Below, one piece after another: positions 1 through 20,137 of a stretch of 22,258 nucleotides of DNA. This DNA comes from an uncultured Dehalococcoidia bacterium (GTDB lineage Bacteria; Chloroflexota; Dehalococcoidia; Lucifugimonadales; UBA3495), in contig CATMOE010000058.1 in NCBI GenBank assembly GCA_950072105.1, forward strand, positions 1 to 22,258, written 5' to 3'. Position numbers and translations under genes: made by a program. Each line of letters opens with the position of its first letter. The stretch's first letter is position 1. Under the pieces are notes generated by a model that worked only from the letters and a program-made list of their open reading frames with translations, made no database searches and was not told the DNA's origin.

Positions 1-336
1 GATAAGCCACGGCCCTTCCACACGGTGCCGTAGGATCACTTTGCCCGACTTTCGTCCCTGCTCGACTTGTAGGTCTTACAGTCAAGCCCCCTTATGCCAA
101 TGCGTTCTTAGGACGATTTCCATCCGTCCTGAGGGGACCTTTGGGCGCCTCCGTTACATTTTAGGAGGCAACCGCCCCAGTTAAACTGCCCACCAGGCAC
201 TGTCCCCCAGTTTTGCTGAGGTTAGAACCAAAAACAGCCAAGGGTGGTATTTCAACGGCGGCTCCACCCCAACTAGCGTCGGGGTTTCATAGCCTCCCAC
301 CTATCCTACACATGACAGCTCCCAGCCCAATACCAG

Positions 337-372
<36 letters not shown>

Positions 373-497
373 CGCGGGTCGCCCGCGTCTTCACGGGCAC
401 CGCAATTTCACCGAGCCCTCCGTCGAGACAATGGCCAAGTCGTTCAACCATTCATGCGGGTCGGAACTTACCCGACAAGGGACTTCGCTACCTTAGG

Positions 498-898
498 CAT
501 TTTGTTACTCATCAAACTTCTCCATTGGTCCCATCCCTTGTTAAAGGGGGAGGTTAGGATGGGGTAGTTAGACGGGGCCGGACATTTCTGCCGGCCTCTG
601 CATGTCGCCATACAGATCGGACCATATCTTCCCCACGTTCCGACAGGGGTCTGGCGTATGGTCTCTGAGGATTCCAGGGAGGTCCGCGCTTCCCCATGGA
701 CATGGGTTAGCGTTTCTTCTCCGAGGCCTTTCCTGCTGATTGTCCGCACCGGACGCATTATTACCGATCAACCCAGATTAGGATGACTTGGTAGCGCCGG
801 ATACTCGGAGTTTCCAGCATATAGCCAGATTTTATAACGGCCTTGGTCAGCCTTTGAGGCCGAGGCTTGCGCCGGGGCCTGGTTGGACTAACCGGTTG
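498..898 (-). mobile_element. Group I self-splicing intron (IB-like, no homing endonuclease ORF) inserted after 23S U1923
   Basis: Splits the conserved AACGGU|CCUAAGG. The exon ends in U (899) and the intron ends in omega-G (498). Core elements: P AUGCUGGAAA (811-820), Q AAUCAGCAGG (732-741), R UCAGAGACCAUA (657-668), S AAGAUAUGGUCC (619-630). P3 is UCUGGC/GCCAGA, P7 is GACCA/UGGUC, and P9 is CUGUAUG-GCGA-CAUGCAG. The IGS GCCGUUA (835-841) pairs with exon UAACGGU, giving the G-U pair at the splice site. Confidence 0.96.
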
Positions 899-952
899 AC
901 CGTTAGAGTTACGGCCGCCGTTCACCGGGGCTTCAGTTCGCAGCTCTCACCG

Positions 953-996
<44 letters not shown>

Positions 997-1646
997 GTAG
1001 GGTTTCCCCTTAGCACAGACCTGTGTTTTTGTTAAACAGTCGCCCGGCCTTCTTCTCTGCGCCCCCAGAGCGCTTCACCAGCTAGTGGCTTCACCCACCG
1101 GGGGGCCCTTTCTCCCAAAGTTACAGGGCTCTTTTGTCTAGTTCCTTAACGGAGGTTAGCTCGAACGCCTTAGGACTTTTATCCTTGCCCACCAGTGGCG
1201 GTTTGCGGTACGGTCGCCCCTGCTCCATAACTACGAAGCTTTTCTCGTCGGTTTGGGATCAGCAGAGTTTCGTATCTCGAAAGATCGATTCCCTCCTCTC
1301 TCGGCTCGTAACGATGGAGTGGATTTGCCTGCCCCATCTTGGCCTACGGAGAAGAACACACCATGTCCAATAGGCATGCCCTACCTACCCTTCCGCACCC
1401 CTCCTTAGTTTTAAAGCGAAACAACGGCGGTGCAGGAATATTAACCTGCTGTCCATCGCCTTCGGCTCTTGCCTACGGCTTAGGACCGACTAACCCTACG
1501 CCGATAAACGTTGCGTAGGAAACCTTGGGCTTTCGGCGCCAGGGATTTTCACCCTAGTTTACGTTACTCATTCCAGGATTCTCACTTCCCCGCGCTCCAG
1601 TCAGCCTCACGATTGACCTTCATCGCCCGAGGAACGCTCCCCTACC

Positions 1647-1807
1647 ATACCCAGGCATGATTCAGAGGATCTGACCCTTTTCCCGCCGGATTCACCGCCG
1701 GGAGCCCTTTGGCCGTTCCGCTCCAACCGAAGTCGGAGTTTCCCGATCATTGGATTCCCGGTAGATCCACCATTGGGAGCAAGATTTTAGCCTCTGTACC
1801 TGAACAT
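1647..1807 (-). other. Structured insertion (intervening sequence or expansion segment) in 23S helix 45
   Basis: There are 163 nt between the conserved flanks CCGAAGCCGU and GGUAGGGGAGCGUUCC, versus about 24 nt in E. coli. The insert is closed by AUGUUCAGGUA/UGCCUGGGUAU and CAGAGG/CCUCUG stems. Internal hairpins include CUCCGAC-UUCG-GUUGGAG (1721-1738). It has no credible ORF. Confidence 0.88.
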
Positions 1808-1889
1808 TCACGGCTTCGGCGGCAAGCTTGAGCCCCGTTACATTTTCGGCGCGAAACCCCTCGACCAGTGGGCTGTTACGCACTCTTTA

Positions 1890-1920
<31 letters not shown>

Positions 1921-2493
1921 TTGTCTGGGGAATCTCACTTCCTTTGCCACTTAGCTTGCACTTGGGGGCCTTAGCCGGTGATCTGGGCTGTTTCCCTTTC
2001 GACTACCGCACTTATCTGTGGCAGTCTCACTCCCGGGTATCGGATAGACGGCATTGGTGGTTTGATTGGGTTTGGTAAGCTCACGCCCCCTAGCCCATTC
2101 AGTGCCCTACCTCCGTCCACCTAGTTCCCGAGGCTGCACCTAAATGCATTTCGGGGAGAACTAGCTATTTCCGAGTTCGATTGGCATTTCACCTCTACCC
2201 ACAGCTCATCCCAAGCTTTTGTACCAGCCACGGGTTCGGTCCTCCAGTTCGCGTTAACGAACCTTCAACCTGGCCATGGGTAGCTCACCCGGTTTCGAGT
2301 CTAATATATGGAACTAAGCGCCCTATTCAGACTCGCTTTCGCTACGGCTCCGGAACTACAGTTCCTTAACCTCGCTCCACACATTAAGTCCCTGGATCAT
2401 TCTTCAATAGGCACGCCGCCACCCCTTCCAATAAAAGAAGAGGCTACGACCTTCTGTAGGCTTACGGTTTCAGATCTATTTCACTCCCCGCTA

Positions 2494-2527
<34 letters not shown>

Positions 2528-3263
2528 ACGCTATCGGTGACCAAGGGTATTTAGCCTTGGAGGGTGGTCCCCCCAGATTCCCACAAGGTTTCCCGTGCCC
2601 CGTGGTACTCAGGGTATGCGCTAGGAGTCTTGTCCCTTTCGTCTACGGGGCTTTCACCCTCTATGACGGTCCTTCCCAGGTGCCTTCGACTAGAGACAAG
2701 ATTTGTAACTCCTTCAGGTCTGGCGAGGCGACCTAAAACGCGCCCTACAACCCCGATACGACATAGGACCTCACTCCACTAAGTCGTACTGGTTTAGGCT
2801 ATTCCCCGTTCGTTCGCCACTACTAGGGGAATCTCGGTTGATTTCTTTTCCTCGGGGTACTTAGATGTTTCAGTTCCCCCGCTTACCTTCCCGATACAAA
2901 ACCGGGATAATCCGACTCAACACCGGATTAGGTTACCCCATTCGGGTATCCCCGACTATGCCTGCTAGACGGCTCATCGAGGCTTAACGCAGCCTTGCCG
3001 CGCCCTTCATCGGCCCTTGGTCCCAAGGCATCCACCGTAAGCCCTTAATAACTTGACCCACGCTAGGAACTTCAAACTTAATACTTTGTTCTTCGCAGGA
3101 TTCTCGCTTCCTATTCTTTTGTTAATGTGCGGGCAAGAGAAACGGCGGCTGGGGTTTACCCCGAACCGCCGTCCAGGCTATCCCAACTCTATTGTCTTTT
3201 TCAGGTGACTCGCATCAACTGCAAACAACCTTCCGCCAACAAGTATCCTCTTGCGGACTTACG

Positions 3264-3332: not shown

Positions 3333-4187
3333 TTACCGCCCCTTGAACTCCGGCCGGCGTTTTTCCAGGAATGCCTGGACCGCCTCTTTGTGGTCCTCCG
3401 TCGACCGGGCCTGGTCCTGGGCCACGTGGGCCAGATGTAGACTGTCTTTTAGGCTCATGTCCAGGCTCTGGTGCACCAGGTATTTAATCATGGCCAAGCT
3501 CTGGGTGGGCCCTTGGGCCAAGCGGGTCGCTAGTTCCATCGAGGCTTCTTCGATGGCGTCGTCGGCGACTACTTTGCTCACCAGACCCAACCGATAGGCT
3601 TCATTGCCGTCGATGCGGTCCCCGGTGTATTGCAGAAGCAGGGTGTTGCTCAAACCGATCAACCGGGGCAACTGCCAGCAGCTACCGTCGCCCGGTATAA
3701 GCCCCATGCGCACGAAGGCTTCGGAGAACTGGGCCTTTTCGGCGGCGATACGGATGTCGCAGCCCAGGGCTATACCCATACCGACTCCCATGGCGTGGCC
3801 GTTAACCGCGGCTATCGATGGTTTCTGCAGCTCGTGGAGCCGCAGGGGCACCATTGCGGCGCCGACGGCCTCGGACGTGGATCTCTTGGCAAACCGGCTC
3901 TCCATCCTCCCCCAGGGCAAGGGGGCCGGGTCCGCGCCGGTGTTGGACTTTTCGTCCCGGTCCTGGATCCGCTGGTTGAAGCCACGAACGTTCGCCCCGG
4001 AGCAGAACGACGGCTCGGTGCCCGTGAGCAACAACACCCTTTGTTCCGGGTTGTCCTCAAACTGGTCCAGGGCTTGCAGGAGCTCTTGGGCCATCTCAGC
4101 GCCCATTGCGTTCCGGGTAGACGGGTCGTGCATGGTGATTATAAAAACCCCGTCCCTGGTTTCTGTCTTGATGAACTGATTATCCAT
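3333..4187 (-). CDS. Enoyl-CoA hydratase/isomerase (crotonase family, PaaG-like)
   Basis: Motifs FCSGAN, KPSIAAVNGHAMGVG, ALGCDIRIA, GLIP and C-terminal AFLEKRRPEFKGR. Start moved to the ATG at 4187, which follows GGAGG. Confidence 0.92.
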   Translation of the reverse strand: MDNQFIKTETRDGVFIITMHDPSTRNAMGAEMAQELLQALDQFEDNPEQRVLLLTGTEPSFCSGANVRGFNQRIQDRDEKSNTGADPAPLPWGRMESRFAKRSTSEAVGAAMVPLRLHELQKPSIAAVNGHAMGVGMGIALGCDIRIAAEKAQFSEAFVRMGLIPGDGSCWQLPRLIGLSNTLLLQYTGDRIDGNEAYRLGLVSKVVADDAIEEASMELATRLAQGPTQSLAMIKYLVHQSLDMSLKDSLHLAHVAQDQARSTEDHKEAVQAFLEKRRPEFKGR

Positions 4188-4357
4188 CGTCGCCTCCAAT
4201 TGAGAGGTTATCTGTCAACTAGCCCAGTGGCAGTTCACGCATGTTGCCGCTATAATTCGGTGAGTTAAGAGCGCAACACAGTGTTAGTCTTTGAAGCCGT
4301 TCGGGGCCACAGATTAGCACAAGAGCGGAGACCAGACAACTTAGGAGGCAGGCCAAG

Positions 4358-4786
4358 ATGCAACAGGGTAGCATCGTCAACATCCACATCGCCAGGGTCA
4401 AGGGCACACCCTCAAACTCAGTGCAAGAAGCCAACGCAATCTCCGGAATGGGGTTGGAAGGCGACCGTAGCTGTGCGAAAGGGAATATGCGCCAGGTGCT
4501 GTTGATGGACAAAGAAACTCTGGACGAATTTGAGTTGGAGCCGGGTCAGATCAAAGAGAACATTACGACCACCGGCGTAGATATGTCCCAGACGCAGCCC
4601 GGCCAAGTGTTCTTTATCGGCGACACGATAACCATGGAGATCGTCGGCGAGTGCGAGCCTTGCGGCAAGATGAACGCCCTTCAACCGGGGCTACTGGACA
4701 AAATAAATCACCGCCGAGGAATGCTCGCCATGGTAATCAACGGCGGCTCCTTCAAGGTTGGCGACTCGATACGCTTGGATTCCTAG
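4358..4786 (+). CDS. MOSC domain-containing protein (YiiM/YuaD-like)
   Basis: Motifs GLEGDR, RQVLL, ENITTTG, CEPCGKM and RGMLAMVINGG. AGGAGG RBS upstream. Confidence 0.9.
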   Translation: MQQGSIVNIHIARVKGTPSNSVQEANAISGMGLEGDRSCAKGNMRQVLLMDKETLDEFELEPGQIKENITTTGVDMSQTQPGQVFFIGDTITMEIVGECEPCGKMNALQPGLLDKINHRRGMLAMVINGGSFKVGDSIRLDS

Positions 4787-4820
4787 ATCGCCGGGTGAGT
4801 TCCCTCAAAAGAGCGGTAAC

Positions 4821-4857
4821 AAAAAGGCGGGAGGTTAAAGGCCTCCCGCCTTCTCTT
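4821..4857. terminator. Bidirectional intrinsic terminator between convergent genes
   Basis: AAGGCGGGAGG-7 nt-CCTCCCGCCTT, with an A-run on the left and a pyrimidine run on the right. Confidence 0.8.
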
Positions 4858-4902
4858 ATTGTGCCCATTCTTCCGGTAAGTGGAATCTTGCCTGTAATTG
4901 CC

Positions 4903-5480
4903 TTACGGCGTGCGTCCGGACATGCCCAGTAGCTTGTCCTGAATGCTGGCAGTGATCGGCACTTGTATCTCCGATCCAAAGAAGCCGCCCTGCCGGGCCC
5001 CTTCTATAGCCTGGGACAAGAACCCATAACACGCTTCCGCCAAGGCGGAGTCCATGTCGGTATTCTGGCCTGTTGCCGTGGACAGGTCCCAATTGTGGAT
5101 AACAATGTCTCCCATGGGAATCATGAGGAAACCGCCCGCGGGCATCGGACCGAAGGGCGTCTCCACCGTGGATGACATATCCATGGACTTGGCGGTGGCC
5201 AGCACTGCGGCGGTATTGGCCCGGAAAACGGCCTCCGCGCCTTCGGTCGGTATCGGATCCGCCACCGAGAACATCTCACCAGGATCCCCGGGGCCCCGTT
5301 CAATACGCTGTTGGCGAACACCGCGACCCTGAGGTTATGGTTGATCAACGACTGAACGTTCCATTCGCTACAGGGAGTAGACGAACTCAATTGATCAGCC
5401 TTGATGCTAGCCAACTTAGGCAGCATCAGTTGAATCGCAGCTTCGTAAGCATCGATTGGATTCGGACCTTGTTGAGCCAT
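4903..5480 (-). pseudogene. TIGR03086 / MDMPI_N (DinB-like) metal-binding protein, split by a 1-nt frameshift near 5286-5297 (pseudogene or sequencing error)
   Basis: The N-terminal half (ORF 5121-5480) has TPCSEWNVQSLINH. The C-terminal half (ORF 4903-5274) has TPFG, DIVIHNWDL and DKLLGMSGR. Adding one base in GGGGCCCCGGGG joins them into a 192-aa protein. Confidence 0.82.
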
Positions 5481-5620
5481 GGGTTATCTCTTTCTACGCC
5501 GCCGGTGACGGCCTTTTAGTAAATTTTGCCGGGCAGTTTCTGCCCAATGTACGTATCGACGTGGCTCCTAGCCGCAATTTGCCGCCCGGATTGTCCCACG
5601 GGCTCATAACTTGAGAGCGG

Positions 5621-5650
5621 ATTGTATGGGCAAGGTCCATCCTGCGTCAA
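5621..5650 (-). promoter_or_regulatory. sigma70-type promoter for the TIGR03086-like gene
   Basis: TTGACG, 18 nt, TACAAT. Confidence 0.6.
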
Positions 5651-5697
5651 CCCATAGTTCGTTCTTCTACGTCCTTTACCCGTCTCCAGCCCGGCTG

Positions 5698-7056
5698 TTA
5701 ACTCAGTGTTCTCGCAACAGTGCCGGACACATCGGTCACCTGTAGGATATCCGACCAGGCGTTGACCGCGTCTTCCACGCCTTCTTGAGATAGCACCAAC
5801 GCCACATTCTCCTGGAACTTAGCTTTGATGTTTTCAAAGCCCCACGGGTTTTTCTGGCTGCCCAGGATGTCGGCCCTGGCAGTAACGTGCTCGAACACCC
5901 GGCCATCTTTCAACGTGATCTTGATCTTATGTCCGTCATCGGACCTGGTCAGCATCTCCTCGGATTTGGCCATGACCCTGGTCCGCACTTTGCCCATGGT
6001 TTCGTTGATGGTGGGGTCGGCTATTTTTTCTTGAGTGAAAGTGTCCACAGCAATTTCCCCGTCCACCAGGGCCGCCGCGACGTTAAACTTGGCGCTGAAT
6101 TTCCCCTTAAGTTCGTCGTCAGGGTCCTGGTAAAGCATCACCACCGAGTAATACGACTGGTCGACCTCGGCCGAGGCCACGTCTTCGTAGGTGAAATCGT
6201 TGTCTCGCATCAGGCTGAACAGGCTATCCAACATGGCGTGATTGCCACCGCAGCAGGGATACTTCTTAATCATCAAAGCGTCCTGAACCCGGTAAGGCTT
6301 ACCCAGGTTTTCCGCCATCTCATCCAAGTCGTAGATGCCCTCTCCCAGAACGGTGGTAGCGAAACCGAAGGGATGCTCAATGATCTGCTCTCCGGCAGTC
6401 AATCCCCGCTGAGCGAGTTGGGCCGCGGTCACGCCATCCCGGCAGGTCAGGCCGGCGTGCAACGGCTTGGTCATGGTGCCGAAGTTGTGGATCAACCCGC
6501 TGGCCATGGACCCAGCCATGCCCAGCGCCATGACGGTCTGTCCATGGTCTAGCTTCATCAGCTTGGCGCAGGCGGCGGTGCAGGCCAACCGGCCGATGAC
6601 CGCGGTACTGTGGAACCCCTTGTCCATCTGCTTGTATTTGGTGGCATGTTGCAGCGCCAGCCCAACCTCGCACCCGATCACATAGGCTTCCAGCAGATCT
6701 CGTCCGGTAGCTCCCGAGTGCTCTCCGATCGCCAGTAGAGCGGGGAAAATAGCGACAGTGGGATGGCCGAATCCGCCAAAATCGTCGTAGTCCAGGGCAT
6801 GGCCCATGGTCCCGTTGGCCAAGGCCGCGTTGGCTACGGAGCTTTGAGATCCCGACGAAAGCACCGTAGCTTGAGGCGCCGCCCCTTGATCGGCGACATA
6901 TTTCTTGATGATGTCACCCACCGGCTGGGCTGAACCCGCCAGGATAACCCCAATGACGTCGAAGCATGACTCATTGGCCACCCGGATAGCGTCGGGCGGT
7001 ATGTCCTCGTACGTTGTGTTGACGATCCACTTGGCGATTGTATCTGTCGCGCCCAT
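5698..7056 (-). CDS. MmgE/PrpD family protein
   Basis: Motifs AALANGTMGHALDYDD, GHPT, GFHST, TKPLHAG, KKYPCC and KFSAKF. GGAGG RBS upstream. Confidence 0.93.
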   Translation of the reverse strand: MGATDTIAKWIVNTTYEDIPPDAIRVANESCFDVIGVILAGSAQPVGDIIKKYVADQGAAPQATVLSSGSQSSVANAALANGTMGHALDYDDFGGFGHPTVAIFPALLAIGEHSGATGRDLLEAYVIGCEVGLALQHATKYKQMDKGFHSTAVIGRLACTAACAKLMKLDHGQTVMALGMAGSMASGLIHNFGTMTKPLHAGLTCRDGVTAAQLAQRGLTAGEQIIEHPFGFATTVLGEGIYDLDEMAENLGKPYRVQDALMIKKYPCCGGNHAMLDSLFSLMRDNDFTYEDVASAEVDQSYYSVVMLYQDPDDELKGKFSAKFNVAAALVDGEIAVDTFTQEKIADPTINETMGKVRTRVMAKSEEMLTRSDDGHKIKITLKDGRVFEHVTARADILGSQKNPWGFENIKAKFQENVALVLSQEGVEDAVNAWSDILQVTDVSGTVARTLS

Positions 7057-7121
7057 CTACTTGCCTCCGTAAACTCAGAATCTGTGCCAAGATTCTCTTG
7101 GTTTTAAGGAACTTCGCGCCC

Positions 7122-7149
7122 ATTATATACCTGGCAGTGGCGACGGCAA
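7122..7149 (-). promoter_or_regulatory. Possible sigma70 promoter for the MmgE/PrpD gene
   Basis: TTGCCG, 16 nt, TATAAT. Confidence 0.45.
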
Positions 7150-7312
7150 GACAGGTATTTGGAATAAAAACCCGGCCTAGATATCTATACTCGTCGACCT
7201 GTGAAAGACATATAATTGTGAAACTATCCTCGGAAATGCCGAGAAGAATCGCCGCTGTCCCTGCTTCGGAACCTTTACGGGGTGGAAAATCGAAATTGGA
7301 TAAACTGACCAT

Positions 7313-8497
7313 ATGACTACAACAACCGAAGCCGTAATTATCGGCGGCGGGGTGATGGGTTGCAGCATACTGTTCAACCTGGCCGCCCGCGGATTGACCA
7401 ACTCGATATTGTTGGAGCGTGAGTCGCTGGGCTCCGGTTCCACCGGCCGCTCTTCCGGGGCCGTGCGGATGCACTACTCCAACGAAGTCCACGCCCGGAT
7501 GGCCTGGCAAAGCCTGGAGATATTCCGCAACTTCGATCAGGTTATCGGCGGCAGCGTAGAGAACCAGGCTGCCTTCGTGGAAACCGGGTACCTGATCTTC
7601 TCCGGCAACGATGACGTGGACGCCTTCCACGCCAATGTGGCCATGCATCAGCGGGTTGGCATTAAATCCAGCGTCATCAGCCGGGAGGACGCCGCCGAGA
7701 TCGCCCCCGCCTTCAACTTAGAAGATTGCGCCGCCATCGCCTATGAACCCATGTCGGGACACGCTGATCCTTCAGGCGTCGCCGCCGCCTATGCCTCCCG
7801 GGCCCGTGAGTTGGGCGCCCAAATAAGGCTACAGTCTCCAGCCACCACTGTGGAGATTTCTTCTGGGAAAGTAACCGCGGTGATCACCGCCGGAGAGCGC
7901 ATCGAAACACCCATGGCCGTAGTGGCCACCGGTCCCTGGAGCCGGCGCTTCCTACTTCAGCACGGAATAGACCTGCCACTGGAGGCCACCCGGCACGAGG
8001 TGATACACCTTAAACGCCCAGTAGACAAGCTTCCCTACCATCCCGGCGGTGCGGATATTGCCAACCTGATCTACTTCCGCCCGGAAGGCGCAGACCTAAC
8101 TCTGGTGGGCAACGGCAACATTGAGCAAGTGGTGGATGATCCGGAGATATACGCCGCCAGGCCCAGCCAGAGCTTCATTCAAGAAGTGTGGAGCCGGCTG
8201 GTTCGCCGGATTCCAGTCATGGAAGAAGCCGAATTCAGCACCGGCTATGCCGGACTGTACACGTCCACTCCGGACTCTCATCCCATCATTGACCGGGTAG
8301 ACGGAATCGATGGCCTGTACATCTGCACTGGGTTCAGCGGCCACGGGTTCAAACTATCTCCCATGGTGGGTGTGCTGATGGCCGAACTGATGCTGGACGG
8401 CCGGGCCACCACCATAGACATCTCTCCCCTGCGCATGTCCCGGTTTCGTGAGGGAGATTTGAACAGTCCAAGCTACGGGTTCAAAGTGCTGGTTTAA
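7313..8497 (+). CDS. FAD-dependent oxidoreductase (DAO / sarcosine oxidase beta-like)
   Basis: Rossmann motif IIGGGVMG, plus GSTGRSSG, TPDSHPII and GFSGHGFKLSPMVG. Confidence 0.92.
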   Translation: MTTTTEAVIIGGGVMGCSILFNLAARGLTNSILLERESLGSGSTGRSSGAVRMHYSNEVHARMAWQSLEIFRNFDQVIGGSVENQAAFVETGYLIFSGNDDVDAFHANVAMHQRVGIKSSVISREDAAEIAPAFNLEDCAAIAYEPMSGHADPSGVAAAYASRARELGAQIRLQSPATTVEISSGKVTAVITAGERIETPMAVVATGPWSRRFLLQHGIDLPLEATRHEVIHLKRPVDKLPYHPGGADIANLIYFRPEGADLTLVGNGNIEQVVDDPEIYAARPSQSFIQEVWSRLVRRIPVMEEAEFSTGYAGLYTSTPDSHPIIDRVDGIDGLYICTGFSGHGFKLSPMVGVLMAELMLDGRATTIDISPLRMSRFREGDLNSPSYGFKVLV

Positions 8498-8502
8498 GAG
8501 GT

Positions 8503-9243
8503 GTGGATGTGAAGGGCCTATTGCTATTGACGGCGCTTATGTTGCTCGCCATGGTAGCGCTAACGGCGTGCGTCAGTCTGACCGCGGAGGAAAAGACCTA
8601 CAAAGCTGCGGTGGAATTGCAGGGGCAAGGGAAGCTGAACGAAGCTATCGCCGAATACGGCAAGGTCCTGGAGCTGAACCCCCAGTCTGTCGAAGCTTAT
8701 GCCAACCGTGGTGGCGCTCGCGCCGATCTGGGCGAATATCAGATGGCCCTGCAGGATTACGGCCAGGCTCTGCTGCTCAACCCTGAGGACGCCAAAATGT
8801 ATCTCACTCGTGCTAATCTCCATAACGATCTAGGGGAGACTGACAAGGCCATCGAGGACTACAGCCAAGCGATACGGATCACGCCAACTTTCTCGGATTA
8901 CTACCACCGAAGGGCTAATATCTACGCCAAACTGGGCCAAGTAGACCTGGCCTTGGGAGACTACGCCGAGTCGATCCGCCTCAGTCCCACCTTCGCCGCA
9001 ATATATGTCGACCGGGGCAAGTTTTACGGCAACTTGAACCAACGTCAACGGGCCTTGGACGACTTGACGGAAGCGATCCGTCTTGACGGGAACTACAGAG
9101 AGGCTTATGCGCTACGCGCCGCGGAAAACGCCCATACTGGCAATGACGCCGCCGCCCAGCAAGACCTGGAACAAGCCGTAGGGCTTGGCTATGATCAAGC
9201 CCTTCTCGCAGATACGATTCAGCGGATTAGAGCCCTGCGTTAG
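8503..9243 (+). CDS. Tetratricopeptide repeat lipoprotein
   Basis: Hydrophobic signal peptide with lipobox LTAC, then about six 34-aa repeats (AYxNRG..A..DY..A..L.P). Confidence 0.88.
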   Translation: MDVKGLLLLTALMLLAMVALTACVSLTAEEKTYKAAVELQGQGKLNEAIAEYGKVLELNPQSVEAYANRGGARADLGEYQMALQDYGQALLLNPEDAKMYLTRANLHNDLGETDKAIEDYSQAIRITPTFSDYYHRRANIYAKLGQVDLALGDYAESIRLSPTFAAIYVDRGKFYGNLNQRQRALDDLTEAIRLDGNYREAYALRAAENAHTGNDAAAQQDLEQAVGLGYDQALLADTIQRIRALR

Positions 9244-9294
9244 TTGGGGCTTTGGCATGCCATCACCGTTAAATCGGAATATTGGCGAATCCGT

Positions 9295-10536
9295 GTGAAG
9301 CATACTTGGTTATTTACATTGGTTCTGCTTCCGGCCTGCGCCCTTATCCTCGCCGGTTGTCAGACCGGAAAAGTTCCGGAACGGCAGCAGGCGATTATTT
9401 CCCTGGACCAGCCGGTCAACCGGGACCCGGCCGCCGGCCGCCCTTTTCAAGACAGCGGCTCGATTCATGCCGCTCAGGGCAACCTTCAGCGATCCGTCGT
9501 GGATTTCGACGAAGCCATTCGGTTGGACCCGAAATTTGTGCAGGCATACTATTCCAGAGGGTTCGTGTATAACCGGTTGGGCCAGCCTCTTCGAGCCATC
9601 GAAGATTTCAAACGAGCAATCCTGCTAGACCCAGATGTGGCGGAGGGTTACCTCGGCAGAGGCGAAGCCCACGCCGCGCTGAAGCAAATACCCCAAGCCA
9701 TCGAGAATTACGGGGAGGCAATCAGGCGTGATCCCGATTCCTCCAGAGCCTATTACGGCCGGGGTAACGTTTACGCCGAGCTGGGCCGACCCCGGCTGGC
9801 CATACAGGACTGGGAGGACGCCACCCAGGCCGATAGTCAGTTCGCCCCGCCCTATCATCGCTTGGGCGAAGCCTATCGGGGCATGGCTCAACTCCAACGG
9901 GCCCTCACAACCCTGAATCATGCCCTCCGGCTTGACCCGGGCAATGCTCCCAGCCTCGCCAGCCGTGGCGCGGCTTACGCTCAGTTGGGCCAGTTCCAAC
10001 CAGCGGCCCGCGACCTGGATGAAGCCATCCTGCTGGACCCCGAACACGCCCAATCTCACAATAACCGGGCTTACATCGCCCTCAATCTGGGAAAGATCCA
10101 GCAGGCTATACAACACCTAAACACCGCCATCTCCCTGGATCCATTGGCGGGGCCGGCCTACACCAATAGGGGATATGCCTACCACCGATCGGGACGCTAC
10201 CAACAGGCCGTTCAGGACCTTGACCAAGCGGTGGGATTGATCACGGAAGACATTACAGCCTACCGCCGATGGGGCCTGGCCTACGACGGCTGGGAACAGT
10301 ATCGCCGGCCCAGGGAAGACTTCGACGAGGCTATCCTTATTGTACCGTGGATTGGTGGGGTGTACGCTGTGCGTGGGGTTGCCAACGCCCTGTTGGGAAG
10401 AGACTCAGCCTCCCTCCGCGACATCGACCTAGCGGCCCAAAGAGGATTAGACCGGAGACTGGTGGAGCGGGCCATAAGGCTGGAGCGGTCAAAAGCAGGA
10501 AATCAGGGCCTAGGGGCTAGTAACTCTCCAGGCTGA
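9295..10536 (+). CDS. Tetratricopeptide repeat lipoprotein (about 9-10 repeats)
   Basis: Probable GTG start at 9295 gives a signal peptide ending in lipobox LAGC. Repeats such as AYYSRG...AIEDF..AI.LDP follow. Confidence 0.85.
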   Translation: MKHTWLFTLVLLPACALILAGCQTGKVPERQQAIISLDQPVNRDPAAGRPFQDSGSIHAAQGNLQRSVVDFDEAIRLDPKFVQAYYSRGFVYNRLGQPLRAIEDFKRAILLDPDVAEGYLGRGEAHAALKQIPQAIENYGEAIRRDPDSSRAYYGRGNVYAELGRPRLAIQDWEDATQADSQFAPPYHRLGEAYRGMAQLQRALTTLNHALRLDPGNAPSLASRGAAYAQLGQFQPAARDLDEAILLDPEHAQSHNNRAYIALNLGKIQQAIQHLNTAISLDPLAGPAYTNRGYAYHRSGRYQQAVQDLDQAVGLITEDITAYRRWGLAYDGWEQYRRPREDFDEAILIVPWIGGVYAVRGVANALLGRDSASLRDIDLAAQRGLDRRLVERAIRLERSKAGNQGLGASNSPG

Positions 10537-10554
10537 TTGAAAGGACCTAACGAT

Positions 10555-11796
10555 ATGACTCAACCTACCGTCGATGGCGCCCGGTTAAACCGCACCCTGC
10601 AAGAGTTGGGCCGGTTCGGCGACTCGCCCCAGGGTATGCAGCGTATCGCGTTTTCTCCGGACGACGTAGCCGGCCGCCGTTACATCATGTCATTGATGAG
10701 CCAGGCCGGATTGGATATCCGCATCGACGCCGGGGGCAACATCATCGCCCGGAAAGAAGGGTCCGTGGCCGGATTGCCCGCCATCGGCATGGGGTCTCAC
10801 GCCGACACCGTCCCCAGCGGAGGCAAGTACGACGGCGCCTTGGGAGTAATGGCCGCCCTGGAGTGCGCGCAGACTTTGGCCGACAATCACCTAACACTAC
10901 GGCACCCGGTGGAGGTGATGGTCTTCACCAACGAAGAGGGCACCCGCTTTCACCGTTGGCTGCTCGGCAGCCGAGCCATGTCGGGGCTATTGCTGCCGGA
11001 AGACCTTGCCGCCGTCGACGATGAAGGAGTCACCTTGGCCAGCAGGATGTCCGACATCGGGGGAGACCTTTCCCGCGTTGACGAAGCCCAACGGGCGGCG
11101 GGAGAGCTAGCCGCCTTCTTCGAACTCCACATCGAGCAAGGCCCCACCCTATATCAGACCGGCACCCCCATCGGCGTTGTGACCGGCATTACCGGCCGGG
11201 CCCTGTTTGAAGTGGAGATCGACGGGATGGCCAACCACGCCGGCACCACACCAATGGCGGACCGGCACGACGCTCTTGTAAGCGCCTCCCGCCTGGTGTT
11301 GGCGGTCCAGCGCATGGCGGCTGAAGATGAAATATGCCGGGTGGCCACTACCGGGGCGATAGAAGCTCATCCCAACGCCGCCAACGTCATCCCCGGCAAA
11401 GCCCGCATCAGCGTGGAGTTCCGGGACGTGTCAATGGATGCTCTTTCCGCCGCCGAAACCGAGCTACGCCGCGCTGTGGAACGGGTGTCGTCGGACGAAG
11501 GAGTAACGATGCAGATCCATCGCCAAAGATTCACATCGGCGGTCCCCATAGCCGATTCGATGCAAGCGATGGTGGAAGAAGCTGCCGGCCGGTCAAGCTT
11601 GGAGTCACAGCGGCTGCCCAGCGGCGCCGGCCACGACGCCCAGGCTCTTGCCCAGATCGCCGAAATGGCGATGATTTTCGTGCCCAGCGTCAACGGCATC
11701 AGCCACTCGCCCGAGGAATTCACCACCCCTGAGGACTGCGCCAACGGCGCACAGACCCTGCTCAATCTGCTCACCCTGGCCGACGAAAGATTTTAG
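10555..11796 (+). CDS. Zn-dependent M20 amidohydrolase (allantoate amidohydrolase / N-carbamoyl-L-amino acid hydrolase family)
   Basis: Motifs GSHADTVPSGGKYDG, NEEGTRF, ELHIEQG, NHAGTTPM, SGAGHDA and SHSPEE. ATG at 10555 follows AAAGGA. Confidence 0.93.
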   Translation: MTQPTVDGARLNRTLQELGRFGDSPQGMQRIAFSPDDVAGRRYIMSLMSQAGLDIRIDAGGNIIARKEGSVAGLPAIGMGSHADTVPSGGKYDGALGVMAALECAQTLADNHLTLRHPVEVMVFTNEEGTRFHRWLLGSRAMSGLLLPEDLAAVDDEGVTLASRMSDIGGDLSRVDEAQRAAGELAAFFELHIEQGPTLYQTGTPIGVVTGITGRALFEVEIDGMANHAGTTPMADRHDALVSASRLVLAVQRMAAEDEICRVATTGAIEAHPNAANVIPGKARISVEFRDVSMDALSAAETELRRAVERVSSDEGVTMQIHRQRFTSAVPIADSMQAMVEEAAGRSSLESQRLPSGAGHDAQALAQIAEMAMIFVPSVNGISHSPEEFTTPEDCANGAQTLLNLLTLADERF

Positions 11797-11817
11797 CCAT
11801 TTCCAGACAGGAGATTT

Positions 11818-12252
11818 ATGAAACTCACCGGAAGTTATGAGGTTGCCGCCACCGCCGAGAAAGTGTGGAATGCCTTGACCGACCCCGTGTCCTTGTCCGG
11901 CTGCATCCCCGGTTGTGACGGATTGGAGCCGGTTGGACAGGACGATTACACGGCAACGATGACGGTGGGCGTTGGCCCGGTAAAGGGAACCTACAACGCC
12001 AAGATATCCATGCTCGACAAGGACCCTAACCGGTCGTTCCGGCTAGTGATCGAGGGTAGCGGAAACATGGGTTTCGTGAATGGTGAGGCCACCATTACCC
12101 TGGACGAGCAAGAAGGCCTAACCACCATCGGCGTGGACAGCGACGCTCAGATCGGCGGTCCGGTCGCCCGCGTAGGTCAACGCCTGATGGAGAGCGTAGG
12201 CAGGATGATCATGGACAACTTCTTCAAATGTCTCCGGGAATCCATAGAGTAG
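11818..12252 (+). CDS. coxG: CoxG-like SRPBCC/START-fold protein
   Basis: Motifs VWNALTDP..L..CIPGC, VGVGPVKGTY and IGGPVARVGQRL. AGGAG RBS upstream. Confidence 0.85.
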   Translation: MKLTGSYEVAATAEKVWNALTDPVSLSGCIPGCDGLEPVGQDDYTATMTVGVGPVKGTYNAKISMLDKDPNRSFRLVIEGSGNMGFVNGEATITLDEQEGLTTIGVDSDAQIGGPVARVGQRLMESVGRMIMDNFFKCLRESIE

Positions 12253-12359
12253 AAGGGTTCGCCCGGACTGCCGGACCGAACGCTTCCAAATCCTAGATCA
12301 ACTGACCTTGATCGATCCATAGGCAACCCTCGGCTAAGGCAACGGGTATCGGCCGATTT

Positions 12360-13091
12360 ATGGATGAAACTGGAACAAACCTCGTGAAGCTCAGCGGGGT
12401 GTGCGCCATCCTATATGGCGTCACATGGGTCGCATGGCTGGTTGTCTCCGCGGTCGCCACACCCTGGGACCCCGGCGACATGGGACCGTACCTTTTACAA
12501 GTAAACGCCGACCCAACGGCCTACTTAGTCGCCAACTGGCTGGCAGTCATCAGCCACGTCGTAGGGTTGCCCGTCGCCCTGGGGTTTTACCAAGTGCTTC
12601 GCCGGTGGGGCGCAATGCTGTGGGTTGGGGTACTAGCGTTGGTTTTGGGGAGTCTCTTTTTTATCGCCGCCAATATCATGTTTAGGGCGTTTGCTTATGA
12701 ACTGGGGTCTCGCTACGTGGCGGCAAGTGAAGCCACCAGGCCCGCCCTGGAGGTTCTGGCCAGCACCCTGTACCAAACAGGATTGTTTCTGGATCTTATC
12801 GCCCACGAACTCTTCTTCAGCATCGGAATCGGGCTCTTTTCTCTCGCCATCTTTCGGACATCAGTGGCGCCCAAGTGGGTCGGGTGGTTCGGTATGTTCG
12901 GAGCCGTCGCCGCGGGTGGTTTCAGTCTCCTGACTCTGCCCATCATCGTGGGATGGATCGTCGCTCCGGAACCGGTGGTTGTCCTGGCCAGCGGGGTCAT
13001 GATCGTTGGAATGCTCGCCGCCTATGGATGGATAGTAGTCATGGGGATAGTTCTGCTGAGGCAGCGGGAGCCGGTCACACTGGCCACGTGA
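12360..13091 (+). CDS. Multi-pass membrane protein, DUF4386-like
   Basis: About six hydrophobic segments and a PKWVGWFG motif near the C-terminus. The family call is by resemblance only. Confidence 0.6.
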   Translation: MDETGTNLVKLSGVCAILYGVTWVAWLVVSAVATPWDPGDMGPYLLQVNADPTAYLVANWLAVISHVVGLPVALGFYQVLRRWGAMLWVGVLALVLGSLFFIAANIMFRAFAYELGSRYVAASEATRPALEVLASTLYQTGLFLDLIAHELFFSIGIGLFSLAIFRTSVAPKWVGWFGMFGAVAAGGFSLLTLPIIVGWIVAPEPVVVLASGVMIVGMLAAYGWIVVMGIVLLRQREPVTLAT

Positions 13092-13193
13092 GCATAGATT
13101 CACGTCCTATGCCCACTCGATTCGTCAAAGCCGGCCACCGCCCACTCTGAACCGCTCCTGTTGCGTGAGCAGAACACTAGCGCCGACAGAAAC

Positions 13194-13418
13194 CTAAGGG
13201 AAAAGAGTCTCCCCGGTCTCGTCGTCAATCACGGTTATGGCGCTAACCGGACAGTCTTGCGCCGCCTCCATAATGTTCTCTTCCGTGTCAGCGTTTGGGT
13301 CCGCTACGGTGGACTGCCGGTCGTCGTTGAGAACAAACACCTTGGGCGCGTAGGTTTCGCACATGGCGTTTCCTACACAGATGTCGAGGTCAACGGAAAC
13401 TCTAAGCTTTCGTGGCAT
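13194..13418 (-). CDS. Single-cluster ferredoxin, probably [3Fe-4S], P450-associated
   Basis: CVGNAMC...CPVSAI (CxxNxxC-CP). Starts 9 nt after the P450 stop codon. Confidence 0.92.
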   Translation of the reverse strand: MPRKLRVSVDLDICVGNAMCETYAPKVFVLNDDRQSTVADPNADTEENIMEAAQDCPVSAITVIDDETGETLFP

Positions 13419-13427
13419 TGCTACTCT

Positions 13428-14663
13428 CTATTTCAGCGAAACCGGCAGGCTCTTCAAGGAGCGGAAGGTGACGCTGGGCTGATACTCGTAATCATCGGTT
13501 TCCAGGCTTATGGAGTCGTACCTCTCGGCTAGGGCCTTGAAGGCTTCTTGGGCCTCCATTCTCGCCAGCGTCGCGCCAAGGCAGTGGTGGATACCGGACC
13601 CGAAGGCCACGTGGGTGTTGGGCCAACGGCTGATATCGAATGTGTCGGGATTCTCGTGCTTGGCCGGGTCGCGGTTGGCGCTGGACATGAACCACCGGAT
13701 GCGGTCTCCCTCTTTTAACAACTTCCCGCCCAACTCCACGTCTTCCGACGCGATGCGCTGGATCGACTTCACCGGCGGATCGTAGCGCAAACACTCCTCC
13801 GTGGCCCTTACAATGGTATCAGGGTCCTGGAACGGCGCGTCTTTCAACAGCTTCCACTGGTCTGGATGCTGCGTAAAGGCCAGGGTGCCGTTGCAGATAA
13901 GATTGATCGTAGTCTCGTGTCCGGCCAGAAGAAGCAGGATGGCGTCGGCTATCACCTCGTCCCTGGTTAGGGCGCCAGTTTTCTCACCGCTGGCCAACAC
14001 CGAGAGAAGGTCATTCTCGTCGACCGGTAGGGCCACCTTCTGGGCCACCAAGGGAGACAAGTATTCCATCAGCTCTTTGATTCCATCGGTTAGGGGCTGC
14101 ATCCGGTCCGCCTCCCCCCTTCCGATGAAAAGAAGCTTCTCGGCCATGGAGCGGATGAATTTCCGGTCCTCAAAAGGCATCCCCATCATCTGTGCGATGA
14201 CAAAGAGGGGCAGCGGAGTGGCAAAGTCCTTCATGACATCCATCCGCCCGTTCTGATCGGCCTCATCAAGCATATCTTTGACCACTTTCTGGACCATCGG
14301 GCGCCACGTTTCCATGGAGGCTGGGTTAAACCACTTGTGCACCACCTTTCGTTGATCCGTGTGCACCGGCCTATCCTGCTGGATGAACCACTTCATGAAG
14401 AACTCCCTCATGAATTGGTATAAGCCGAGGTCAGATTCGTCGATCGCCGGATAGGGCGATCTTTTGTCCCTAGACCAGAACTCTGAGGAAAACAACTCGT
14501 GATGCCTGGTCATCCAGACCAAGTCATCGTGTCGGGTGATTACCCAGAGCTCGTACTTCTCATTCCAATGGACAGGGTCTTCGTCCCTGATCCGACCGTA
14601 GTAGGAGTAAGGGTCGGCGATGGCCTCACCGCTAAACATCTCATCGCTGATAGCAGTAACCAT
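13428..14663 (-). CDS. Cytochrome P450
   Basis: I-helix AGHETT, K-helix EECLR, ANRDP and heme motif FGSGIHHCLG. Confidence 0.97.
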   Translation of the reverse strand: MVTAISDEMFSGEAIADPYSYYGRIRDEDPVHWNEKYELWVITRHDDLVWMTRHHELFSSEFWSRDKRSPYPAIDESDLGLYQFMREFFMKWFIQQDRPVHTDQRKVVHKWFNPASMETWRPMVQKVVKDMLDEADQNGRMDVMKDFATPLPLFVIAQMMGMPFEDRKFIRSMAEKLLFIGRGEADRMQPLTDGIKELMEYLSPLVAQKVALPVDENDLLSVLASGEKTGALTRDEVIADAILLLLAGHETTINLICNGTLAFTQHPDQWKLLKDAPFQDPDTIVRATEECLRYDPPVKSIQRIASEDVELGGKLLKEGDRIRWFMSSANRDPAKHENPDTFDISRWPNTHVAFGSGIHHCLGATLARMEAQEAFKALAERYDSISLETDDYEYQPSVTFRSLKSLPVSLK

Positions 14664-14692
14664 AACGTCTCCACATCTCTGAATTTTGCTCG

Positions 14693-14721
14693 AATCTAAT
14701 ACTATAGCCGCCTGATGTCAA
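14693..14721 (-). promoter_or_regulatory. sigma70-type promoter for the P450-ferredoxin operon
   Basis: TTGACA, 17 nt, TAGATT, about 30 nt upstream of the ATG. Confidence 0.65.
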
Positions 14722-15101
14722 TGGTGATCTAGCTACATCATGTCTCGATAGACTAGGATACGTCGAACAGATCTTTACGGCTACTGCTGTTCCGATGCCC
14801 CGGCAACCCCATGGAAATCGTGGCAGTGGGTACGACGCTGATGCCCCATCTCGCGATCCCGGACCTCCTACCGGAGAGTACTTTTCCCCATGGCCCCTAC
14901 GGATGTAAGATGCAATGGGTCAAAAAGTATTTCATTCTGATGGAGTGAACGGGACGCCATTGCTCCACAGAACGAGCGTCCAACTGGCTAGACAATACTG
15001 GCGGCGGCTGTCTAAACATAGTAAAGCTGCCGCCAAATCACGGCGCTTCGTTCTCACGGTTATATGCATGATGGCGCCGAATCAAAAGAATAGGACGGAA
15101 C

Positions 15102-16265
15102 ATGCCAACAGCACCACACGACACCGAATATTATCTTGATACCGCCCGCGAATTGGCCTCCCGCGTGGCGCCTAAAGTCGACATTATAGAAGCTGAACGC
15201 CAACTACCCACCGAACTCGCTAACGAGATTGCCGACAAGGGTTTCTTCCGCCTCCTCATTCCTCGTTCGATGGGTGGAGCGGAACTGGACCATCCGACAT
15301 TCCGCAAGATACTTGAGATATTCGCCGCCGTTGATGGCAGCACCGCTTGGGCAATCAACCAGAACAATGTGTTCGCCACCGATGTGATGCGGATGCCAGA
15401 GCAGATCGCTCATGAGATTTGGGATGAAAGACGAGCCGTTGTAACCAACGGCCCCCCTACCAGATCCGCCAAGGCCGTTACCGTGGACGGCGGATACAGG
15501 CTGAGCGGACTGTGGAACTTCAGTAGCGGCTTCGACCACGCCACCTGGATCGCAGCCCTGGTTCCCGTTTGGAGCCAAGGACAAACCGCTCCCACCGGCA
15601 GGGAAAACTTCCGCTTGATGCTTCTGCCGAAAAATGAAGTGACTTTCGTAGACCAATGGCATGTCAACGGGATGCGAGGCACCGCAAGTTTTAGCTTCGA
15701 GTTGAATGACATCTTTGTTCCCGAGACCCGAACGTATGCCCAAACTGACCCCGTGCGGTCAGATAGCCCCGTCTACGTTATTCCTAGAGGGCTGCTATTC
15801 GGCTCAGGCTTCGCCACCGTGGCTCTGGGCATCGCCCGCGCCAGCTTGGGCACGGTGATTGACCTAGCCGCAAACAAGACGCCGGTCCGAGCCAACACGT
15901 TGGTGCAAGATCTCTCCACTACCCACCGGCTCATCGGAGAAGCGGAAGCCATCTGGCGCTCAGCCCGGGCGTATCTCCAAGAATGCGCCTCCGCAGTTTG
16001 GGAAGGCTCATGCAAGAATGGCGCACTGACGCCGGAGGAGCGCATCCAGTTACGCCTTGCCAGCACGTACGCAATTCGAAGCGCGGCCCAGACCGTAGAT
16101 ATATCCTATAACCTTAGTGGATCGGACGCGATCTTCACGCCTAATGCGATCCACCGTTATTTCCAGGACATCCACGTCATAACCCAACATGCCCAAGGGC
16201 GTCCCGTCCACTTGGAAACCGCGGGCCGGTTCTTGCTAGGCCTGAATCCCGATGGCAATCTGTAG
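15102..16265 (+). CDS. Group D flavin-dependent monooxygenase, oxygenase component (acyl-CoA dehydrogenase fold; HsaA/IacA/C2-HpaH-like)
   Basis: Motifs AERQLP, DGSTAW, GGYRLSGLWNFSSG, WHVNGMRGTAS and RYFQDIHVITQH. Confidence 0.88.
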   Translation: MPTAPHDTEYYLDTARELASRVAPKVDIIEAERQLPTELANEIADKGFFRLLIPRSMGGAELDHPTFRKILEIFAAVDGSTAWAINQNNVFATDVMRMPEQIAHEIWDERRAVVTNGPPTRSAKAVTVDGGYRLSGLWNFSSGFDHATWIAALVPVWSQGQTAPTGRENFRLMLLPKNEVTFVDQWHVNGMRGTASFSFELNDIFVPETRTYAQTDPVRSDSPVYVIPRGLLFGSGFATVALGIARASLGTVIDLAANKTPVRANTLVQDLSTTHRLIGEAEAIWRSARAYLQECASAVWEGSCKNGALTPEERIQLRLASTYAIRSAAQTVDISYNLSGSDAIFTPNAIHRYFQDIHVITQHAQGRPVHLETAGRFLLGLNPDGNL

Positions 16266-16298
16266 AAAGTAGCAATCTGACTGTCAGGAGTAGCGATA

Positions 16299-17225
16299 AT
16301 GGAACGGAGAATACCAACGAAAGAAGAGGTTCTGGCTTATCTGGAAAAGGACCGGAATTGGGGGCGTTGGGGCGACGACGACCAGGTTGGAGCGGTCAAT
16401 ATGATCACTCCGGAAAAACGCGCCGCCGCTGCCCGGTTGGTCAAATCCGGCCGCGCCGTGTCGTTGAGCCGCGAGTTCCCGAAAACCCCGGCGCCAAACA
16501 ATCCTACCCCGGCCATCCACTTCATGAAGCGCGGCGCCAAAGACACGGGCGGCTCCGCCACCGATTTCTACGGCATCTCCTATCACGGCCAAGCGACCAC
16601 CCACTTGGATGCTCTGTGCCACGTCTGGGACCACAACGGGATGTGGAACGGACGCAACCCCGACGACGTCATAACCTTTGACGGTGCAACTTGGGGGTCG
16701 GTGGAGCACTGGAAGGAAGGAATCATTACCCGGGGAGTGCTTTTGGACGTTCCCAAGTTCCGGGGGCAGCCCTTCGTTAAATTGGACGAGCCCATCCACG
16801 GATGGGACCTGGAGGACGTCGCCAAGTCTCAAGGGATCACCATGGAGCCGGGTGACGCGTTAATCGTCTATGGCGGCCGGGACGCTTGGAACGAGGTCAA
16901 TCCACAGTGGGGGTCTCCTCCAGCGCCCGGCCAGCCCCGCCAACGAGCGGGCCTGCACGCTTCATGCCTCAAGTTCATCCGGGAGTCGGACTGCTCCCTG
17001 CTGGTCTGGGACATGATGGATTTCGAGCCCAATGGATACGACATTCCCTGGTCGGTGCACGGCTCAATCTTCGCCTACGGCATCGGGCTGTTGGACAACG
17101 CGCTGCTGCAACCACTAGCTGAGGCCTGCGCCGAGGAGGGCCGTTACGAGTTCATGCTCACCGTGAATCCGCTTCGTGTCGTAGGAGGAACCGGCTCCCC
17201 GGTTAATCCAATAGCGCTGTTTTGA
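16299..17225 (+). CDS. Cyclase family metal-dependent hydrolase (kynurenine formamidase / isatin hydrolase superfamily)
   Basis: Motifs NWGRWGDDDQVG, HGQATTHLDALCH, ITRGVLLD and GGTGSPVNPIA. AGGAG RBS upstream. Confidence 0.9.
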   Translation: MERRIPTKEEVLAYLEKDRNWGRWGDDDQVGAVNMITPEKRAAAARLVKSGRAVSLSREFPKTPAPNNPTPAIHFMKRGAKDTGGSATDFYGISYHGQATTHLDALCHVWDHNGMWNGRNPDDVITFDGATWGSVEHWKEGIITRGVLLDVPKFRGQPFVKLDEPIHGWDLEDVAKSQGITMEPGDALIVYGGRDAWNEVNPQWGSPPAPGQPRQRAGLHASCLKFIRESDCSLLVWDMMDFEPNGYDIPWSVHGSIFAYGIGLLDNALLQPLAEACAEEGRYEFMLTVNPLRVVGGTGSPVNPIALF

Positions 17226-17303
17226 GGGAGAGTTCGCCTGGGTGAGTCCACTACCCCAGACCTAGACGAGGGCCACGATTCCCAGTGTACCCCCCCGCCG
17301 GGC

Positions 17304-17337
17304 CAACAAAAAAGCAGAGACGAATTTGCCTCTGCTT
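17304..17337 (-). terminator. Intrinsic terminator of the ABC permease operon
   Basis: Minus strand AAGCAGAGGC-AAATTC-GTCTCTGCTT followed by TTTTGTT. Confidence 0.78.
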
Positions 17338-17401
17338 AATTTTCTCCCTGTTCAAACCTGCGGCCATCGTAACCGCAGCCACTAGCTAATCAGACAACTC
17401 T

Positions 17402-18442: not shown

Positions 18443-18501
18443 CTCTGCTTCTTCCTTTACTGACTACCAATGCCAACGGTTCTTGAATCGGGGCGGGTAT
18501 T

Positions 18502-19419: not shown

Positions 19420-19487
19420 AATCTACTCTCCGGGTCCGTTCCCAATTACCAACCGATTCTCGCCGGTACAGGCCGCCGACTCCTGGA

Positions 19488-20089: not shown

Positions 20090-20137
20090 AGTTTCGCTGC
20101 TCCGCTCTAGCGGGAGATTCGATCTACTAACTTACCA

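Follow-up and report, generated by a model that had tools for sequence, protein, structure and literature searches.

An endonuclease-free clade of IB4-like group I introns at position 1923 of the 23S rRNA in Dehalococcoidia

In textbook cycles, rRNA introns without an endonuclease are expected to be short-lived. The locus analysed here raises the question of what a short insertion of this kind is doing in a 23S rRNA gene and how its lineage endures. The window, as we call the whole 22,258-nt stretch of DNA under analysis, carries a 23S gene on its minus strand. Alignment of this gene with E. coli rrlH placed a 401-nt insertion directly after U1923 (Table 1), with the junctions AACGGU/CAACC on the 5' side and AAAAUG/CCUAAGG on the 3' side (slashes mark the splice sites) and a G as the last intron base. 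The original prediction, made from the sequence alone, of an insert between U1923 and C1924 is thereby upheld. Its assignment to group I introns also holds, since all core helices can be drawn, with support from covariation in 48 members of the clade described below. The insert is a group I intron that is predicted, on sequence grounds, to splice. The proposed check with Infernal and RF00028 succeeded in part: the match at 858-598 spans the full model (1-253) with an E-value of 2.2e-10, but its 45.2 bits lie below the Rfam gathering score of 50. For this reason, a whole-window Rfam scan at the gathering threshold left the intron unlisted, and RF00028 was found under an E-value threshold. Since the assembly that contains the window (G000; 92% complete) has a single 23S gene, and this gene carries the insert, splicing is likely necessary, in agreement with the earlier claim that the intron must be excised for helix 69 to form. 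The intron holds no endonuclease-sized ORF, and the longest same-strand frame that overlaps it, read from stop to stop, comprises 99 aa and gave no Pfam match, consistent with its description as ORF-less.

Table 1. Features of the interrupted 23S rRNA gene, in window coordinates.
Feature	Position	Strand	Basis
23S rRNA 3' exon; first base C1924 = window 497; truncated by the contig end near E. coli 2427	1..497	-	Rfam and alignment
Group I intron (IB4-like, ORF-less), 401 nt, after 23S U1923	498..898	-	Alignment, RF00028, hand-drawn fold, covariation
Terminal omega-G	498..498	-	Invariant in 48/48 clade members
Copy of a dispersed REP-like genomic repeat within P9.2	527..564	-	Repeat matches in the genome
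P9 with GCGA tetraloop (608-605) and P9.1 with GAAA tetraloop (588-585)	576..616	-	Fold, covariation
P7 (665-659 x 624-619); predicted G-binding pair G663-C620; C660-G623	619..665	-	Fold, covariation
P8	631..649	-	Fold, covariation
P3 (829-823 x 657-650), enclosing P4-P6	650..829	-	UA/CG/UG covariation
P6 and extension; location of the LAGLIDADG ORF in relatives	669..733	-	Fold, covariation, ORF map of relatives
P4 (819-814/739-734) with P5, P5a, P5b domain	734..819	-	Fold, covariation
P1: exon UAACGGU (905-899) x internal guide 841-835; U899-G841 wobble at the 5' splice site; C898-G842	835..905	-	99.5% paired
Long, clade-typical P1 extension: stem 893-886/852-845, GCAA loop 870-867; no P2	845..893	-	Fold, clade comparison
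23S rRNA 5' exon; last base U1923 = window 899	899..3058	-	Rfam and alignment

The secondary structure was drawn by hand and then scored on 48 distinct clade members. P1, P3–P9 and P9.1 are all drawable, and P2 is absent, P1 being followed by AAAA and then P3. Pairing is retained in 98.0% of 3360 cells, with two-sided changes at 19 of 70 pairs, located in P3, P5, P5a/b, P6a, P7, P8, P9 and P9.1. None of 500 shuffles attained the observed pairing and slid partners paired at 31–40%, controls that favour the fold because it was derived from the same, mutually related sequences. The fold has a z-score of -3.3, and none of 100 shuffles was equally stable. The U-G pair of P1 (U899-G841) occurs in all 48 members, while P3 and P7 are paired in 99.7% and 100% of cases, respectively, each with a two-sided change. 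The guide co-varies with the exon in other phyla (ACCGU with GGCGGUU, AUCGU with GGCGAUU). It starts 46–71 nt into the intron within the clade (54 rows, including duplicates) as against 6–44 nt outside it, the latter range coming from the 25 of 61 introns with a pattern match, among the matches listed. The catalytic residues are invariant in 48/48 clade members, and P10 is weak in the window's copy as judged from its sequence.

Most architectural claims of the original prediction were borne out. The complete P/Q/R/S elements correspond to a P3/P7 pseudoknotted core with a G-C guanosine-binding pair and a P4-P6 domain; P9 is capped by a GNRA loop, P5 (with P5a/P5b) and P6 are extended, P2 is missing and the terminal G is invariant. 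The C-G pair in P7 (GACCA/UGGUC), described as departing from the common form, is indeed present, but it is not rare: C660-G623 is C-G in 44 of the 48 members and U-A in the other 4, and the C-G pair also occurs outside the Dehalococcoidia clade. A P5 extended by P5a/P5b and the lack of a P7.1/7.2 insertion are hallmarks of subgroup IB4, both of which are seen here together with the absence of P2. IB4 introns without P2 are described in the available text of PMC1995217. The architecture points to an IB4-like intron. The long P1 extension with its GCAA loop, the GAAA-capped P9.1 and the repeat copy in P9.2 go beyond what the original prediction listed.

The peripheral loops take up genomic repeats: the repeat in P9.2 has 55 matches in the window's genome, and the reversed control has 0. 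Related copies, in either orientation, lie in the 3' part of the introns of six other genomes (G008, G004, G020, G159, G219 and G156). A GUAACAA-like motif occurs twice in the intron on the minus strand, in a P5b bulge (765-757) and in the 3' tail (510-498); most L1923 introns outside CPR have preserved the tail form. Pairing of the 3' GUAAC tail with the guide was considered and dropped, since introns with a GUGGG guide retain the tail.

Contigs from RNA libraries cover the intron in all six RNA runs, drawn from four studies, which makes its expression plausible. The search for a spliced junction returned the expected 401-skip joint (496-898) in 6/6 runs, but about 105 intron-less relatives have a junction identical to the spliced joint, with flanks 96–100% identical. 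The joint was therefore rejected as proof of splicing, not being host-specific. Precursor contigs in the RNA runs were discounted as bridges since they have fewer than 31 letters on the exon side, and the 5' splice site is bridged by X18 only, a run whose kind is not on record. Contig depth of the intron core relative to the 5' exon (higher in X11 and X12, far lower in X3, X4 and X8) was left unused because it cannot rank the parts. Back-joints at 873-496 (X14) and 844-501 (X8), one contig each and from sister variants, could reflect circles or template switching and give only a hint of circular intron RNA.

The host belongs to Dehalococcoidia and likely to SAR202 group III. Three observations lead to this assignment: PF00296 (luciferase-like monooxygenase) has 120 matches in the genome, a few of them split; the sequencing runs that contain the stretch are marine or hydrothermal; and introns from Dehalococcoidia/Chloroflexota genomes fall in the same clade as the window's intron. 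The PF00296 count agrees with SAR202 group III, for whose subgroup IIIa the available text of PMC6946804 gives up to 114 FMNO paralogs, and so supports the lineage first proposed. The 23S gene has further peculiarities. A hairpin insertion of about 130 nt lies at 1648-1777 (-), near E. coli 1184, and its region varies among relatives, with an anchor-to-anchor span of 35 to 184 nt. This helix 45 region is a known site of intervening sequences, and the insertion may be one of the RNase III type or else an expansion segment. About 78 extra nt lie in domain I at 2699-2776 (-), near E. coli 285, where Rfam also shows inserts. The 16S and 23S genes appear unlinked, because a 16S fragment lies on a separate contig (G000:C50 25305-26264, with the 23S on C58), a protein gene for enoyl-CoA hydratase (3333-4199) precedes the 23S gene, and the window has no tRNA. 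The genes at 3333-22021 encode the enoyl-CoA hydratase, MOSC, MmgE/PrpD, an FAD oxidoreductase, an M20 hydrolase, CoxG, a P450, an acyl-CoA dehydrogenase, a cyclase and a peptide ABC transporter; these catabolic and transport genes have no link to the intron.

Introns at L1923 occur widely among bacterial MAGs. A GTDB scan with a pattern comprising the terminal G and the 3' exon yielded at least 120 L1923 junction matches, those listed including Acidimicrobiia, Thermoleophilia, Acidobacteriota, Gemmatimonadota, Ignavibacteria, CPR, Dehalococcoidia and others. Whole introns were measurable at 71 loci; three loci were dropped (one without an insert, two ambiguous), and the remainder are short of flank. 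Among the matches listed, 46 of the 61 measurable introns outside Dehalococcoidia exceed 600 nt, an endonuclease-sized length, and 15 of the 61 are ORF-less copies, while all ten from Dehalococcoidia/Chloroflexota measure 459 nt or less. Where mapped in relatives, the endonuclease ORF is of the LAGLIDADG_1 type and sits between Q and R; the ORFs of two relatives were confirmed as PF00961. The site is accordingly not rare, and its rarity was overstated in the original prediction: junctions occur across many phyla, and archaeal LSU/1923 introns scored as IB4 fill nine table rows in the available text of PMC6125680. The identification of L1923 as the I-CeuI site was correct, PMC3315327 naming it, in its available text, for the chloroplast LSU of Chlamydomonas eugametos. 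For bacteria, position 1923 is unnamed among the 23S intron sites in the available text of PMC1995217, Table 1 included, and position 1923/1924 was not found in that of PMC11270868 with one supplementary file. Chloroflexota are not named among intron hosts in the available part of PMC11835236. In the open-access literature, we found no report of an L1923 group I intron in Chloroflexota/SAR202 and no paper with the phrase L1923 together with group I intron. Metagenome loci L217-L338 show the same P4-P5 scaffold and an endonuclease at about L1911-13, L1917, L1931 and L2604, and some (e.g. L294) hold adjacent L1923 and L1931 introns.

Comparison with known systems places the intron more precisely. 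It shares its insertion site in helix 69 with the I-CeuI intron of Chlamydomonas eugametos, and both belong to the same ribozyme class; it is set apart by its bacterial host and its lack of an endonuclease ORF. Insertion after U1923 agrees with an I-CeuI-type homing intron, and the single-motif LAGLIDADG ORF of such introns is absent. The exon reads ACUCUAAC in the window's host and ACUAUAAC in the Chlamydomonas eugametos L1923 system. The target site in the family has the sequence TAACTCTAACGGTCCTAAGG, and the family exon ACUCUAACGGU (A1916C; 899-915, minus strand), at the edge of the endonuclease target, occurs in both empty and filled alleles. The archaeal IB4 LSU/1923 introns, as described in the available text of PMC6125680, occupy the same site in short and ORF-sized copies with an architecture of the no-P2 type, and an archaeal L1923 intron from the GTDB scan aligns to the same core; the window's intron differs in its bacterial host and long P1 extension. 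Bacterial L1917/L1931 introns also lack P2 and have a complex P5, but they and those at L1951 and L2593 occupy other sites (PMC1995217, available text). The LAGLIDADG_1 introns at L1923 in Acidimicrobiia, Thermoleophilia, Acidobacteriota, Gemmatimonadota, Ignavibacteria and CPR share the P4-P5-P7-P9 scaffold and the GUAACA 3' tail with the window's intron, whereas their short P1 loop and separate branches in the core tree distinguish them from the Dehalococcoidia clade. In the CPR rRNA introns, ORF-less copies are scattered amid ORF-bearing ones (PMC11270868, available text), whereas the clade described here, which spans several families, is ORF-less throughout. An old ORF-less tRNA group I intron has likewise been maintained through vertical inheritance and losses, and horizontal transfer as well as recombination at its locus are reported for it; it belongs to a different subgroup, and its site, unlike L1923, lacks abundant endonuclease-bearing relatives.

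The clade itself emerged from surveys at several taxonomic levels. The survey of related 23S genes suggested with the original prediction covered 202 genomes of the family, in 150 of which the site was matched; 44 of these (about 29% occupancy, 19 genera, one genome with a single flank) bear the intron, all copies being ORF-less. Outside the family but within the order, 6 of 131 pattern-positive genomes have it, as does 1 of 399 genomes in a class sample whose 23S coverage is not established. In a quick tree of 197 intron cores, from which three long rows were left out, a branch with an SH-aLRT of 99 separates the 53 Dehalococcoidia rows (51 distinct) from all others. The distinct copies measure 333–504 nt and span at least five families, and the ORF-less introns outside the clade are scattered amid ORF-bearing ones. 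A profile of 44 L1923 endonucleases matched the 51 clade introns weakly (best E 0.0099), almost only where the endonuclease ORFs overlap the ribozyme. Searches of the 202 family genomes returned 0 for PF00961 (LAGLIDADG_1) and 0 for a direct L1923 enzyme query, and in the control such enzymes do match PF00961. PF14528 was found in 35 of the 202, mostly in ORFs of 400–1400 aa that are probably inteins. A metagenome search for an ORF-bearing member gave at least 122 matches, mainly introns at L1931 and other sites; none of about 83 placed metagenome cores, among the matches listed, and none of 10 placed viral cores fell inside the clade. The viral scan gave 20 matches, none of them seen at L1923. 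An ORF-bearing member may exist, because the GTDB and metagenome scans yield lower bounds. Since relatives at L1923 have a LAGLIDADG_1 ORF lying between Q and R, we infer, with good support and in line with the original prediction, that the intron lineage lost a P6 endonuclease gene. What is new is the endonuclease-free clade; the single intron is mostly ordinary and extends a known site to a further host lineage.

How the clade is inherited was addressed by comparing introns with hosts. Over 42 family rows, intron distance is correlated with host distance (Mantel rho 0.41; no value this high in 2000 permutations). Explaining presence and absence on a 92-row host tree (46 intron-bearing, 46 chosen empty) takes 20 changes, at least 15 of them forced by well-supported branches, versus 30.9 in shuffles. 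Introns are closer than their hosts in 2 of 861 pairs, both of which join G153 with genomes of genus g27: the introns of G153 and G158 are 97% identical in hosts 7.5% apart, and the median intron distance is 0.27 in the 331 pairs with such a host distance. Forcing the G153 intron with that of its host sister G027 was rejected (p-AU 0.004; the test group was picked after inspection of the tree). The G153 intron lies on a 1.2-Mb contig, and its exon markers are host-type from -42 and +75. Genus-level intron clades were rejected for g7 (p-AU 0.0004), g21 (0.024), g11 (0.042) and g27 (6e-9), again in tests set up after the tree. Family-wide intron monophyly was not rejected (p-AU 0.14), and neither was the grouping of f12 with f23 introns (0.24), so that cross-family transfer is unsupported. 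Intron-bearing and empty sister genomes less than 1% apart exist. One MAG, G083, holds both an intron-bearing (L046) and an empty (L186) 23S; its intron copy, at a contig end, is mosaic-looking, G153-like in the 5' part and G027-like in the 3' part, and is either a chimera or a recombinant. The picture from the trees is one of mostly vertical descent with repeated loss and some lateral swaps, unless the MAGs are chimeric; since all relatives are MAGs, chimeric rRNA assemblies could mimic transfer. With the same proviso, the near-identical intron in the distant hosts G153 and G158 suggests lateral movement without an enzyme.

Considering these results, we judge it probable that the window carries an ORF-less IB4-like L1923 intron, predicted to self-splice, in a clade that likely lost its P6 endonuclease once and has since likely been passed on vertically, lost repeatedly and swapped laterally on occasion. 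By analogy with group I chemistry, the guide would pair with the exon UAACGGU and set the splice site at U899-G841, and a free guanosine bound in P7 at G663-C620 would attack after U1923. The freed 3'-OH of the exon would then attack after omega-G498, rejoining AACGGU/CCUAAGG and restoring helix 69, a subunit bridge. Because the only 23S gene of the assembly carries the intron, the core would stay under selection, and the P1 extension, P6 and P9.2 would drift and take up repeats. The most likely route of the rare swaps would be homologous recombination between the near-invariant flanks and incoming rDNA, with no homing enzyme of the intron's own. An intervening sequence that is dead or outside group I, and that RNase III cuts out or the host tolerates where it lies, would fit the covariance-model score below the gathering threshold and the variable helix-45 insertion of the family, but the invariant catalytic residues (48/48), the covarying helices and the position within helix 69 of the sole 23S gene make it scarcely credible. 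The lateral component could be denied by a purely vertical history, in which the intron entered with an endonuclease, lost it and was subsequently inherited and lost, any discordance reflecting MAG chimeras or alignment noise. The Mantel correlation, the whole-family monophyly that was not rejected, the mosaic-looking G083 copy and the closely related intron-bearing and empty sisters, which fit recent losses, all suit this history; it is nevertheless unlikely in view of the G153 intron on its long contig with host-type markers on both sides and of the genus clades g7, g21, g11 and g27 rejected in post-tree tests.

If the swaps are real, their route has to be considered. Possibly, though we put this forward only tentatively, an old endonuclease-free lineage still moves among SAR202 genera at its native site by precise, enzyme-independent group I mobility, the extreme form of which would be reverse splicing followed by reverse transcription. 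An enzyme acting in trans is conceivable as well: an L1923 LAGLIDADG endonuclease from an uncaptured phage, plasmid or rare ORF-bearing member would cut the empty sites, into which the ORF-less intron would then be copied. Other phyla have L1923 enzymes in abundance, short co-conversion fits homing, and trans-homing of ORF-less introns is described for T4-like phages in the available text of PMC3984707. However, neither PF00961 nor an L1923-enzyme homolog turned up in any of the 202 family genomes, the PF14528 matches there are mostly in the long, probably intein, ORFs, no placed metagenome core (about 83, among the matches listed) or viral core (10) fell inside the clade, and about 70% of the sites lack an intron, more than one would expect under efficient homing; the probability of this route appears low. 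Mobility through RNA, in which the excised intron would reverse-splice into empty 23S RNA, be copied by a host reverse transcriptase (RT) and recombine into the gene, would explain precise swaps despite the missing endonuclease. RTs occur in 64 of the 202 family genomes, and the two RNA runs with a back-joint in one contig each offer a hint of intron circles. RTs are present in 22/44 intron-bearing and 31/105 empty genomes (Fisher p 0.024; kin not independent), an enrichment that was set aside as phylogenetically confounded. This route demands that intron RNA cross between species, the same RT pathway would erase the intron more easily, G153 and the window's genome have no RT match, and the available text of PMC3984707 describes the route as without direct experimental support. 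It is thus very improbable. Both trans-homing and reverse splicing appear to be weaker candidates for the transfer than recombination across the flanks.

The clade matters more than the single intron. Set against the textbook expectation, 51 distinct copies in at least five families persist without an endonuclease and with signs of lateral swaps. Because the Rfam cut-off misses the window's intron, rRNA introns can also break 23S annotation in SAR202 MAGs. The spread of group I introns without a homing enzyme is an open question according to the available text of PMC3984707, and the clade supplies matched intron-plus and intron-minus sister genomes in which enzyme-free spread can be tested. 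If true, the lateral movement suggested here would represent natural, enzyme-independent group I mobility in an abundant deep-ocean bacterial group.
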